DNA of 64,000 bases from an uncultured Planctomycetia bacterium. GTDB taxonomy: Bacteria > Omnitrophota > Gorgyraeia > 1-14-0-20-64-10. Of the stretch, positions 201-33,012 are shown one piece after another (position 1 is the stretch's first letter; the number at the start of each line of letters is the position of its first letter). The translations under genes were made by a program, and so were the position numbers. The notes under the pieces were generated by a model. That model was not told the DNA's origin, did not search any database, and saw only the letters and a list, made by a program, of their open reading frames with translations. The stretch covers positions 8,723-72,722 of the forward strand of contig CAZRTR010000001.1 in assembly GCA_964603095.1 (NCBI GenBank). Reading direction: 5' to 3'.

Positions 201-260
201 CGGTCGTTCGTCCTTCGACAAGCCTGCCCTGAGGAAACTCGAAGGGCTCAGGACGAACGG
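201..260. repeat. REP-like palindromic repeat, family 1 (copy A, inverted orientation)
   Basis: The sequence cgttcgtcct...(loop)...aggacgaacg forms inverted arms. The same core recurs near 1664, 5228, 24533, 30519 and 32941. Confidence 0.6.
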
Positions 261-388
261 AGATAGCGAAGCATTTTTCATCGGGTCTTGCCTCCTTTTT
301 ATCGGGGAGAAACGGTTTTGTTTAGCTTACGCAAAAGATACGCCTGCTTGGGGCCGGTGTCAAGCGAACAATGTGATCTAAGTTTAGA

Positions 389-1654
389 TTAACGGAGGAA
401 GGAGGGGATACGCTCGGGGCGGATCAGGTCCTGCAACGTCTCCCGGCGGCGGATCAGGAACCAGCGGCTGCCGTGGACCAGCGCCTCGGCCGGACGGGGC
501 CGGGAGTTGTAGTTGCTGGCCATCGTGAAGCCGTAGGCCCCTGCCCCCATGATCGCCAGGAGATCCCCCGGCTTCAAGGGGGGTAGGGCCCGATCCTTGG
601 CGAAGAAGTCGCCACTCTCGCAGACCGGGCCCACGAGATCGTACCGGACTTTTGAAGACGGGACATGGTTCGGTTGGTCGACCGGCAGGATCTCGTGATA
701 GGCGCCGTACAGGGAGGGGCGGATCAGGTCGTTCATCCCGGCATCCACCACGGCGAAGAGCTTCGCTCGATTCTCTTTAAGATACAGCAGACGGGTAAGG
801 AGAATCCCGGCGTTTCCGGCGATGAACCGGCCCGGCTCCAGGATGATCTTGAGTTTCCTTCTCTTCAAGAGGGGAAGAACCGCCCGGGCGTAATCGGCCG
901 CGGTCTGAGGGGTCTCCTTGTGGTAGACGATTCCGAGACCCCCGCCGATATTGAGCGTTCGGATCCGGATTCCATGTCGCTTGGCCCGCTCGATCATTCT
1001 GAGGGCCTTGGCGATCGCCTCCTTGAATGGGCCGGCCTTCAAGATCTGGGAGCCGATATGGATGTGGAGCCCCTCCAGCTTCAGGTGGGGGAACCGACCC
1101 TTTTGTTGGAAGATCGACTCCACCGTCTCCCAGTCGATCCCGAACTTGTTTTGCTTGTGCCCGGTGGTGATGAAGGCGTGGGTGTGGGGATCGACATCCG
1201 GGTTCAGGCGCAGCCCGACAAGCTGCTTTCGCCCCAGCCGGGCCGCGATCGCCTCGATCCGCTGAAGCTCCTGGATCGACTCGACGTTGAAGCAGAGAAT
1301 GCCCTTGCGAAGGGCCGCCTCGATCTCCGATTCGGTCTTGCCGACGGAGGCGAAGACGATCTTCTTCGGGTCGGCGCCGACCCGAACGGCTTTCTGAAGC
1401 TCTCCTCCGGAGACGACGTCGAAGCCGGCTCCCGCTTTTGTAAGGGCCCGGCAGATGGCCAGGGAGCTGTTGGCCTTCATCGAGAAGCAGATCAGGGGCG
1501 CAACCGGTCGGAAGGCGGTCTTCAGTTTCCGGAAATGGTCCAGCAACGTCCCCAAGCTGTAAAGGTAAAGGGGAGTTCCCAGCGCCCGGGCCACGTCGGA
1601 AACCGGCACCTGCTCGCAGAAAAGCTCACCGTTTCGGTACGCGAATCGATGCAC
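389..1654 (-). CDS. lysA: diaminopimelate decarboxylase
   Basis: 421-aa ORF with a fold-III PLP decarboxylase pattern (FSMKAN, GGGLGI, CESGD). It is the last gene of the arg cluster. Confidence 0.9.
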   Translation of the reverse strand: MHRFAYRNGELFCEQVPVSDVARALGTPLYLYSLGTLLDHFRKLKTAFRPVAPLICFSMKANSSLAICRALTKAGAGFDVVSGGELQKAVRVGADPKKIVFASVGKTESEIEAALRKGILCFNVESIQELQRIEAIAARLGRKQLVGLRLNPDVDPHTHAFITTGHKQNKFGIDWETVESIFQQKGRFPHLKLEGLHIHIGSQILKAGPFKEAIAKALRMIERAKRHGIRIRTLNIGGGLGIVYHKETPQTAADYARAVLPLLKRRKLKIILEPGRFIAGNAGILLTRLLYLKENRAKLFAVVDAGMNDLIRPSLYGAYHEILPVDQPNHVPSSKVRYDLVGPVCESGDFFAKDRALPPLKPGDLLAIMGAGAYGFTMASNYNSRPRPAEALVHGSRWFLIRRRETLQDLIRPERIPSFLR

Positions 1655-1660
1655 GTTGCG

Positions 1661-31731: not shown

Positions 31732-31732
31732 C

Positions 31733-32917
31733 TCAAGCAGACGATGGACGAACCAGCGCCGCCACACCGGGAAGGGCTCTTCCTTCCAGATACTCGAGAC
31801 TGGCCCCTCCCCCTGTCGACACATGGGTCATCCGGCTCGCCAGCCCGAACTGGGTTAGAGCTGCGGAGGTGTCTCCTCCTCCCACCACGGTGACGGCTCC
31901 GGAGCCGGCCACCGCCTCGGCGATCGCCCTCGTTCCGGCGGAGAAGCGCTCGATCTCGAAGACCCCCAGCGGCCCGTTCCAGAGGATCGTCTTGGCTTTC
32001 TGGAGATGCTGTTTGAAGGCGGCCACCGTCTTAGGGCCGATGTCGACCCCTTCCCATCCCTCCGGCACTCCCGGCTTCTCGGTGGCTCGGAACGAGGCGT
32101 CCGGCGCCACCTTCGTGGCGATCACATGATCCAAGGGGAGGTGAAGCGTGACGCCCCGTTGTTTCGCCTTGGTCAGGATCCCCTTGGCCGTCTCCAGGTG
32201 CCCCCTCTCCACCGGCGAGTTCCCCACCCCGATTCCTTGGGAGAGGAAGAAGGTGTACTGCATCCCTCCGCCGATCAGGATTCCGTCCACCTTGTCGATC
32301 AGGTTGTCGATCAGTTTGATCTTGTCGGAGACCTTGGCCCCTCCCAGGATCAGCCAATAAGGGTGAGCCGGCTGGCGCATGACCCGGTCCAGGGACTCCA
32401 GCTCCTTCTCCATCAGGAACCCGGCCCCGGCGGGGAGGAGTTGGGCCACCCCGACGGTCGATGCGTGGGCCCGGTGGGCGGTCCCGAAGGCGTCGTTGAT
32501 GTACAGGTCGCCCATCCTGGCCAACGCCTTGGAGAATCCAGGGTCGTTTTTCTCCTCCTCCGGATGGAACCGGAGATTCTCCAGCAGGAGGATATCCCCC
32601 GGCTTCATCCGTGACACCTGCCGCTCCACCTCCGGTCCGATGCAGTCGGGGGCGGATGCCACGGGCCTGCCGATCAGGATGCTTAAGGCCTCGGCGACCG
32701 GCTGCATCCGGAGCTCCGGCGCAACTTTCCCGTCCGGCCGGCCTAGATGGCTCATCAGGATCACCTTGGCGTTGTGCTCCAGGGCGTACCGGATCGTCGG
32801 AAGGGCCGCTTCGATCCGGGTTAGATCGGTCACCTTCCCTCCGTTGATCGGCACGTTGAAATCGACCCGGATCAGGACCCGGCGCTTGTCCAGATCCAGA
32901 TCCCTGATCGTGGGCAA
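31733..32917 (-). CDS. pgk: phosphoglycerate kinase
   Basis: ...PTIRDLDLDKRRVLIRVDFNVP..., GGGASLE. A probable TTG start just downstream of a repeat copy. Confidence 0.88.
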   Translation of the reverse strand: MPTIRDLDLDKRRVLIRVDFNVPINGGKVTDLTRIEAALPTIRYALEHNAKVILMSHLGRPDGKVAPELRMQPVAEALSILIGRPVASAPDCIGPEVERQVSRMKPGDILLLENLRFHPEEEKNDPGFSKALARMGDLYINDAFGTAHRAHASTVGVAQLLPAGAGFLMEKELESLDRVMRQPAHPYWLILGGAKVSDKIKLIDNLIDKVDGILIGGGMQYTFFLSQGIGVGNSPVERGHLETAKGILTKAKQRGVTLHLPLDHVIATKVAPDASFRATEKPGVPEGWEGVDIGPKTVAAFKQHLQKAKTILWNGPLGVFEIERFSAGTRAIAEAVAGSGAVTVVGGGDTSAALTQFGLASRMTHVSTGGGASLEYLEGRALPGVAALVRPSSA

Positions 32918-32940
32918 GCTACCCCGTTCGCCCTGGGCAT

Positions 32941-33012
32941 CCTTCGACGCGCCGTTCATCCTGAGCTGAGTCGGAGGATGAACGGCTTGCTCAGGACGAG
33001 CGGCCCTGGTGA
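32941..33012. repeat. REP-like palindromic repeat, family 1 (copy F)
   Basis: cgccgttcatcctgagctgagtcggaggatgaacggcttgctcaggacgagcgg lies at the gap/pgk junction. Confidence 0.6.

Follow-up and report, generated by a model that had tools for sequence, protein, structure and literature searches.

The 64-kb window analyzed here (64,000 nucleotides of contig CAZRTR010000001.1 from an uncultured member of the Omnitrophota) contains a short palindromic repeat that is real, belongs to a family resembling the repetitive extragenic palindromic (REP) sequences, and recurs at six loci, most of them at junctions between genes. The unit family is not lineage-specific. These observations are likely to be explained by a REP-like family, similar also to the bacterial interspersed mosaic elements (BIMEs), that has an unusually broad distribution and that, in this spacer-poor genome, persists only where neither the coding sequence nor translational coupling is disrupted; the tails, and likewise the n-region of the OppA signal peptide, all encoded by the repeat, would then be by-products.

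A reading of the six places in the window, combined with a structure-aware scan, yields the unit CCGTTCG-NNNN-TGAGC-(YT)-GTCGAA-NNNN-YGAACGG. This 33-nt unit consists of an 11-bp stem, with a conserved outer part (CCGTTCG / YGAACGG) and four freely covarying inner pairs, and of a conserved top, TGAGC-YT-GTCGAA. With up to 2 mismatches allowed, the arm CGTTCGTCCTGAGC occurs 11 times (0.78 expected), and the arm GTCGAAGGACGAACG is found 6 times (0.24 expected). A covariance model made solely from units of other genomes, with none from the window, detects 7 simple units (E <= 1.3e-5) and not a single one between 33 and 64 kb of the window. Once the nested outer units are added, there are 12 units at six loci, all inside window positions 1-33 kb. 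Every locus (6/6) holds two oppositely oriented units, which are either placed side by side (tandem loci 4 and 5) or arranged with one unit in the loop of the other (nested loci 1, 2, 3 and 6). Thus, the shared-core palindromic family proposed in the initial annotation of this DNA is borne out, its copies align above chance by both the shuffle-based counts and the covariance model, and the "second hairpin module" that was mentioned there turns out to be the second, oppositely oriented unit. Stop codons are scarce in the unit: a single unit is open in one of the three sense frames and in all three antisense frames, and each composite in the window is open in one or two of the three sense frames. 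The loci and the adjoining gene boundaries are as follows.

204-260, minus strand: locus 1, a nested 57-nt composite with the outer unit CCGTTCGTCC-TGAGC ... GTCGAA-GGACGAACGA and a short antisense core in its loop
1652-1663, minus strand: argH stop (TAG, 1661-1663), a 6-nt spacer and lysA start (GTG, 1652-1654)
1665-1734, plus strand (antisense to the genes): outer unit of locus 2, enclosing the inner unit 1683-1714 (minus strand)
5213-5216, minus strand: ATGA, the argD stop TGA overlapping the argF start ATG
5220-5289, minus strand (sense): outer unit of locus 3, TGAGC-AAG-(inner antisense unit, 5239-5271)-CGC-GTCGAA
24535-24596, both strands: locus 4, a tandem inverted doublet of units 24564-24596 (minus, sense) and 24535-24567 (plus, antisense)
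30520-30583, both strands: locus 5, a tandem inverted doublet of units 30551-30583 (minus, sense, W type) and 30520-30553 (plus, antisense, S type)
30597-30601, minus strand: TAATG, the secG stop TAA overlapping the oppA start ATG
32915-32917, minus strand: probable TTG start of pgk, chosen by inference, 6 nt after the locus 6 element
32924-33003, minus strand (sense): outer unit of locus 6, with the AAG...CGC nested architecture around the inner unit 32952-32985 (plus strand)

The gene names given in the initial annotation (lysA, argH, argF, argD, oppD, oppF, oppA, secG, pgk and gap, all on the minus strand) are confirmed by NCBIfam profiles. The same annotation had the flanking open reading frame (ORF) running through the whole repeat at each junction, which holds for argH and argD, where the C-terminal tails are indeed encoded by the element, and fails for oppD and gap, which stop inside it. 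The element of locus 2 is translated in full, as the final 24 codons of argH: the ArgH profile reaches residue 473 of 498, and 19 ArgH orthologs end with ...IRRWKxxL(R)* and have no tail. The distance from the argH stop to the lysA start is 4-5 nt in relatives and 6 nt here, despite the 72 nt of in-frame element; relatives at approximately 70% identity possess the same arg-lys operon with no units. At locus 3, argD runs through 70 nt of the element and acquires a tail of about 23 aa (...TVHPEQAVRPSTGSGRTARRRVNQP) that is missing from ArgD orthologs. Only one of the three sense frames is open in this element, and it is the frame that argD uses; the ATGA overlap of argD and argF is present also in the relative L122, which lacks the element. 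The oppD frame covers the sense unit of locus 4 as far as the TGA of its 3' arm (24568-24570), and the oppF ATG (24526-24528) lies beyond the doublet, which is predicted to form one long hairpin (-35 kcal/mol). The gap gene extends four codons into locus 6 and ends at the TGA of the TGAGC core (32991-32993).

Two N-terminal leaders had been proposed as well, one of which appears to stand. Locus 5 codes for residues ~6-27 of pre-OppA (AVRGEPVEPRTVSPFDKLRANG), located before the hydrophobic core of the signal peptide. This leader is probably real because two OppA orthologs (86% and 72% identical) have doublet-derived N-termini and because, in the relative L128, there is no in-frame start between the doublet and the hydrophobic core of OppA. 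The pgk leader is best regarded as an artefact of ORF extension, given that the PGK profile starts only at residue 45 of the long ORF, that a TTG codon is available 6 nt after the element, and that in L128 the pgk start follows the unit.

Contrary to the initial annotation, locus 1 is not at a tight junction, unlike the other five: 128 nt separate it from the lysA stop upstream, and the ~590-nt spacer that holds it contains several repeats. The same 57-nt form is found also in L015, L017 and L102. Locus 1 falls within a doubtful 115-aa ORF (window 1-281, minus strand; L001 5877-6224), which is preceded by a strong Shine-Dalgarno (SD) sequence, AAGGAGG, 9 nt before its ATG, consists mostly of two repeat families and a signal-peptide-like stretch, has no match in Pfam, and is probably not a real gene. 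A palindromic repeat of a second kind, GTCATTGCGAGGAGCC...GGCGACGAAGCAATC, which translates as HVIARS..ATKQS, lies at window positions 33-73 (minus strand; L001 6085-6125); its family also gives C-terminal tails to the SucC orthologs P0252 and P0279 from other Omnitrophota. In the relatives L122 and L124, the operon continues as lysA-dapF-dapA-dapB; in the window (1-388), it is broken after lysA, where the repeat-rich spacer is followed by an unrelated 312-aa gene.

Nearly all gene junctions in the window are co-oriented (minus strand) and most of the genes overlap or abut, so the position of the copies between co-oriented genes says little. Tight co-oriented junctions being the default in this genome, the location of the repeat does not by itself demonstrate the targeting that had been suggested.

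The structural nature of the unit is supported by the pattern of substitutions. The search pattern left four stem positions free, such that pairing at these positions is a fair test: they are fully paired in 39 of 51 distinct units compared with 10.9 in shuffles (maximum 22), and true flips from G-C to C-G are present. In an alignment of 60 units, which unlike the 51-unit set had been selected for pairing, 95.1% of the cells are paired, and the covariation score is 0.380 compared with 0.168, with none of 500 shuffles as high. Pairs of the G·T type outnumber A·C pairs 39 to 4, i.e., the wobbles are compatible with one strand only, and the stem top is able to form tandem G·A pairs; because of these two features, the sense strand (TGAGC...GTCGAA) has a folding advantage, its fold being ~5 kcal/mol more stable than that of the complement. 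Such asymmetry suggests that the functional form is single-stranded and of one polarity. It should be noted that template switching in palindromes can also yield compensatory changes as well as locus-specific stem extensions, and the stems are indeed often prolonged into locus-specific complementary sequence. Folding of the RNA, which the initial annotation had put forward as a check, predicts that the doublets form long single hairpins, with the range of -30 to -51 kcal/mol.

The initial annotation also anticipated further copies outside the window, and these are abundant. A search of species-representative genomes with the exact pattern (free stem positions, 21 specified bases, chance expectation <1) matched at least 120 stretches from more than 10 phyla. 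The matches listed include Chloroflexota/Dehalococcoidia, Nitrospirota, Methylococcaceae, Gallionellaceae, Rhodocyclaceae, Lysobacterales, Anaeromyxobacter, Tectomicrobia, Fibrobacteres, Leptolyngbyaceae and Sphingomonadales, and thus also Beta- and Gammaproteobacteria, Myxococcota and Cyanobacteria. Identical units are found in isolate or complete genomes of Solimonas, Sphingobium, Thermomonas and Ca. Ferrigenium straubiae, and units are carried by Comamonas megaplasmids and by Moraxella osloensis plasmids, in the latter case between narX and narL. The nested pattern matched at least 120 metagenome stretches. No unit was detected in a phage collection, and among viral contigs the unit is rare (19 stretches in 2.9 million). 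Comparison of the whole window with Rfam at the gathering score gave no match, and that of window positions 1-5400 at E <= 10 gave chance-level matches only. Full-text literature searches with the DNA core and with twelve peptides encoded by the repeat found no paper, and the unit sequence is absent from the text of the REP surveys PMC3733652, PMC6006769 and PMC12306157.

The gene context, analyzed by means of a rough gene finder at 120 loci of other phyla, reveals ordinary REP behavior of the family as a whole, i.e., a bias toward gene 3' ends and indifference to the direction of transcription, with no targeting of operon junctions. Clusters of units lie between co-directional (62), convergent (31) and divergent (18) genes, at a median distance of 79 nt past the stop codon, and only 7 of 124 adjacent gene ends extend into the element. 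Thus, the mobile element targeting intercistronic junctions that was envisaged in the initial annotation is not supported. With respect to the direction of transcription, single units are oriented without bias, 17 being sense and 18 antisense. Neighboring units are mostly inverted (39 of 49 pairs), usually with one member of the GTGG/CCAT type and one of the GCCC/GGGT type, and a hand count reveals no preference for the order of the types within pairs. In one orthologous Chloroflexota spacer, the unit is the sole conserved part. Translated units are seen also in a heparinase II/III-like ORF (943 aa) of the Methylococcaceae (L103 1672-2343), in which at least 8 units in frame make up ~240 residues between its N and C domains.

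Several variants of the arrangement deserve separate mention. In Gallionella and some Gammaproteobacteria (L008 649-742 and 4067-4160, L040, L119), doublets have extra inverted flanks, TGATTAAAT...ATTTAATCA, and the flanks of Methylococcaceae doublets are TTAAG/CTTAA. A metagenome-assembled genome (MAG) of the Nitrospirales (L011 894-1066) carries four same-orientation units in tandem with a 47-nt period, and in L054 (589-677) a unit loop contains a 14-nt piece, GAGCCTGTCGAAGG, repeated five times in tandem; slippage seems to have produced both.

The search for a gene that might mobilize the units was negative within the ~1 Mb of loci around them. All-against-all clustering of the ORFs near units yields no recurrent families other than ABC ATPases, acyl-CoA ligases and GGDEF proteins, and Pfam detects no transposase among the ORFs between two Gallionella copies. 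A scan of this ~1 Mb for REP-associated tyrosine transposases (RAYTs), by motif and by tblastn with the RayT of E. coli as query, identified a single RAYT (L095), which is flanked by other REPs, of the GTAG type. None of the plasmid RAYTs checked is accompanied by these units, and one of them, a Chloroflexota RAYT (L150), is flanked by GTAG-type REPs as well. Neither terminal inverted repeats (TIRs) nor target-site duplications were found at the window loci or in the pair of empty and filled sucC|sucD alleles described below.

Other Omnitrophota harbor the same family at the same kinds of junction, namely gap|pgk, secG|oppA, sucC|sucD and pyrG|kdsA. In the relative L128 (about 72% identity), a single unit directly follows the gap TGA and is itself followed by GGAGGA and the pgk ATG, so that the SD sequence overlaps the 3' end of the unit; the same doublet, W in sense and S in antisense orientation, precedes the hydrophobic core of OppA at secG|oppA. 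The nested subtype of the window, TGAGC-AAG-[unit]-CGC-GTCGAA, accounts for seven of the metagenome matches listed. In SucC it supplies a tail, with a stop that overlaps the start of sucD (TAGTG), and in PyrG a tail that ends in an ATGA shared with kdsA; it also forms an in-frame segment inside infB, in-frame segments at the same site of two diverged homologs, and a segment within another ORF; once it is found 12 nt past a stop. Hence 5-6 of the 7 copies of this subtype are translated, as opposed to 10 of 117 for the other nested subtypes among the matches listed.

Some further observations concern these relatives. In L128 (10444-11695), OppD is joined in frame to OppF and is devoid of its C-terminal oligo_HPY part; the window has them as separate genes with the doublet between them. 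The possibility that oppD and oppF are one gene split by the element was rejected, because L128 carries a deletion-fusion that is not comparable. Between secG and the doublet, L128 (4875-4985) contains yet another repeat type (GTCATTTCGAGGCCGTCAGGCCGAGAAATC ... GAGATGAC). Window positions 18932-40599 are 99.97% identical over 21.7 kb to L129 (CAMTXL010000003.1), a contig from the same MAG, with 7 substitutions, no indels and no change in the repeats, which indicates strain redundancy in the bin.

The SucC contig with the nested subtype at sucC|sucD belongs to the Omnitrophota, and the same tail is present in four SucC orthologs that are 70-76% identical to the query SucC; other SucC orthologs have tails derived from other repeat families. 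The elements in L204 and L274 differ at 3 of 72 positions and share 65 consecutive identical bases, while sucC in these two contigs matches at 45% of its third codon positions (45-47% across three contigs), which are thus saturated. The three sucC copies share a degenerate 3' arm, GGGTCA[A/G]GTA, which, being common to all of them, indicates one old insertion at this junction. In L275 (~2690-2750), a further short module, CCTTCGGCAAGCTCAGGGCAGGCC, occupies the own loop of the inner unit; unit loops seem to take up insertions repeatedly, with nesting as deep as three levels. The element is missing from an allele whose SucC body is identical, resulting in a 75-nt presence/absence difference. This pair of empty and filled alleles was considered, and rejected, as proof of recent transposition: comparison of L204 (7655-7730) with L272 and L273 shows 99-100% identity over more than 2 kb up to the junction and 84-87% directly after it, and a drop in identity at exactly that point is a recombination breakpoint.

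How the units came to be translated can be outlined under the interpretation of a broadly distributed REP/BIME-like family. Where genes overlap or abut, the only places left to a module would be the end of the upstream coding sequence (its last codons), the beginning of the downstream one (its first codons) and the few bases that separate the two. Displacement of the old stop would let the upstream ORF run on either to one of the two TGAs that the module contains, as in gap and oppD, or to the old coupling site, which would be the ATGA in the case of argD and the TAG 6 nt before lysA in the case of argH; the tails and the OppA leader would be by-products of such run-on. At the read-through copies, ribosomes would still terminate at the downstream start codon, and therefore translational coupling could survive a hairpin of -35 to -50 kcal/mol. 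Because read-through in the window does not exceed the chance level, we can only infer that selection for retained coupling and coding filters the copies that persist. The conserved consensus, in turn, might be maintained by a sequence-specific trans-acting factor that acts on one DNA strand.

Several results weigh against this interpretation. The probability that read-through in the window arises by chance, calculated from the counts of open frames, is about 0.15-0.2 (about 0.15 for argH, argD and oppA). No mobilizing gene, TIR or target-site duplication came to light in the searches described above. Above all, the conservation at the orthologous sucC|sucD junction (65 of 65 nt) is far greater than expected of a passive by-product; passive tolerance does not explain it, and one would have to invoke purifying selection acting on the hairpin, through an RNA- or DNA-level function, or else gene conversion among the copies.

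This conservation speaks for the tentative alternative that the units are functional intercistronic RNA elements, such as a protector of mRNA 3' ends, a processing site or a brake on ribosome flow, which would set the expression levels of neighboring genes (gap/pgk, sucC/sucD, arg/lys). E. coli REPs are known to stabilize upstream mRNA and to affect translation. Such a role, which we consider possible although not likely, is compatible also with the copies at gap|pgk and secG|oppA that are common to the window and a relative at ~72% identity, with the Chloroflexota spacer in which nothing but the unit is conserved, with the strand-asymmetric hairpin containing G·U and tandem G·A pairs, with the strength of the predicted structures, and with the SD-like GAAGG/GGAGGA motifs at 3' arms that adjoin downstream starts. 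An RNA element, however, is hard to reconcile with the near-equal orientations of single units and with the 18 divergent and 31 convergent clusters; many copies lie in frame within genes, a location for which a role at junctions is meaningless, close relatives have arg junctions that work without units, and gene conversion between copies could account for the conservation too. A further and rather doubtful proposal is that the module is kept near-invariant across more than 10 phyla by a sequence-specific machinery that acts on one strand of DNA (or on RNA) and inserts units into unit loops, and that the Omnitrophota have domesticated it as a translated hairpin that, at stop/start overlaps, tunes re-initiation from one gene to the next, and as the charged n-region of the OppA signal peptide; under such a one-strand machinery, the use of existing loops as insertion sites would explain the three-level nesting.

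An active miniature transposable element aimed at intercistronic junctions of operons is the weakest reading, and an improbable one, notwithstanding that all five window copies at tight junctions lie within a few bases of a stop or start, that at least three repeat families supply tails at sucC|sucD in different Omnitrophota, that the 75-nt presence/absence difference separates alleles that are 99-100% identical upstream, and that the nesting, three levels deep at most, hints at specific sequences as insertion sites. The units occupy every type of spacer family-wide, with the median distance past stops given above, the searches revealed neither a TIR nor a target-site duplication nor a transposase, identity falls from ~100% to 84-87% at the site of the empty/filled difference, which points to recombination, the derived and degenerate 3' arm of the sucC copies indicates one old insertion, and tight co-oriented junctions are the default of this genome. 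Chance similarity, low complexity or an assembly artefact can be considered refuted: nothing apart from the near-duplicate contig in the source MAG speaks for it, that 99.97% identical contig carries the repeats unchanged, the counts are far above those in shuffles, and identical units occur in isolates and complete genomes as well as on Comamonas and Moraxella plasmids.

For repeats of the REP type, lineage specificity, an extragenic location and a tie to RAYTs are taken as the rule, and the unit family appears to depart from all three of these generalizations: the same 33-nt hairpin is found from Chloroflexota to Proteobacteria and Omnitrophota, no link to a RAYT was found in the ~1 Mb of loci around units or on the plasmids checked, and the hairpin is often translated. 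There are consequences for genome annotation, in the form of 4-25 spurious-looking residues on ArgH, ArgD, GAPDH, SucC and PyrG, a false N-terminal extension of Pgk, and small "hypothetical proteins" in MAGs. Furthermore, copies that are identical at orthologous junctions amid saturated synonymous sites provide a test case for distinguishing among repeats that are selfish, homogenized by gene conversion or functional in operon expression.

Two other features of the window concern oppD and a tRNA. A third palindromic repeat, CCCTCACCCC..CCTCTCCCCTCAGGGGAGAGGG..GGGTGAGGGG, is located in frame inside oppD (25513-25560, minus strand) and adds 13 residues (the YPSPHPLPSGERERVRG region) that are missing from the L128 ortholog. 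The tRNA-Gly(GCC) that ARAGORN predicts at 11632-11727 has an unusual length for a tRNA, covering as much as 96 nt.

Among known systems, the nearest counterparts differ by aspect: the MIRUs of mycobacteria in the preserved coupling, the RPEs of Rickettsia in the in-frame palindromes, and REPs, BIMEs and REPINs in anatomy, as detailed below. Likenesses to hammerhead ribozymes, K-turns, attC sites, Tn3 inverted repeats and dif sites were dropped because the defining motifs do not fit. The Chunjie miniature inverted-repeat transposable element (MITE) of Geobacter uraniireducens is a 178-235 bp element with TIRs and direct repeats in an intact operon (PMC2516098, as cited in PMC10969869). The units resemble it as small non-autonomous repeats that leave the operon unbroken and differ in that no TIR-type ends, target-site duplication or recurrent transposase nearby was found, although some Gallionella copies do have the extra TGATTAAAT inverted flanks. 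The Rickettsia palindromic elements (RPEs), reportedly the subject of Ogata et al. 2000, are about 100-150 bp long and confined to Rickettsia, and we know of no sequence relation between them and the units. RPEs are in-frame palindromes in protein genes that encode conserved extra peptides (PMC10969869). The units are likewise in frame in argH, argD and OppA, in SucC, PyrG and InfB of metagenome contigs, and in the heparinase-like gene of L103; unlike RPEs, most of the in-frame copies here are located at the very ends of genes.

The source study of MIRUs, the interspersed repetitive units of mycobacteria, is said to be that of Supply et al. 1997. According to a later account, MIRUs are 46-101-bp direct repeats with a small ORF of their own, found in mycobacteria only, that lie at junctions inside operons, where the stop/start overlap (-4) is kept and the downstream gene is translationally coupled (PMC12548453). 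The location at operon junctions and the preserved coupling are shared with the units described here, which, in contrast to MIRUs, are palindromic and fused to the upstream or the downstream ORF.

The anatomy of REPs, BIMEs and the inverted REP doublets, or REPINs, that are associated with RAYTs is that of 30-40 nt imperfect palindromes, extragenic and biased toward gene 3' ends (PMC3116915, PMC3733652, PMC6006769), and a REP carries a tag, an unpaired GTAG (or CGTC) tetranucleotide, at the stem end (PMC3733652). The units depart from this anatomy in several ways: they begin with CCGTTCG and end with CGAACGG, with no GTAG tag and with CGTC only inside some stems; they have a long conserved loop, TGAGC-YT-GTCGAA; no RAYT was found beside them within the ~1 Mb of loci covered, and the RAYTs seen, both in this ~1 Mb and on plasmids, had other REPs; they are nested and frequently translated; and near-identical units occur in more than 10 phyla, unlike the REP families, which have been described as lineage-specific. 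Nevertheless, as in REPs, BIMEs and REPINs, the unit is a short imperfect palindrome that is repeated and lies mostly past stop codons. As in REPINs, it forms inverted doublets, those of the window folding as one long hairpin; as in BIMEs, two unit types alternate in orientation within mosaic clusters; and, as in REPs, the copies persist at orthologous sites.

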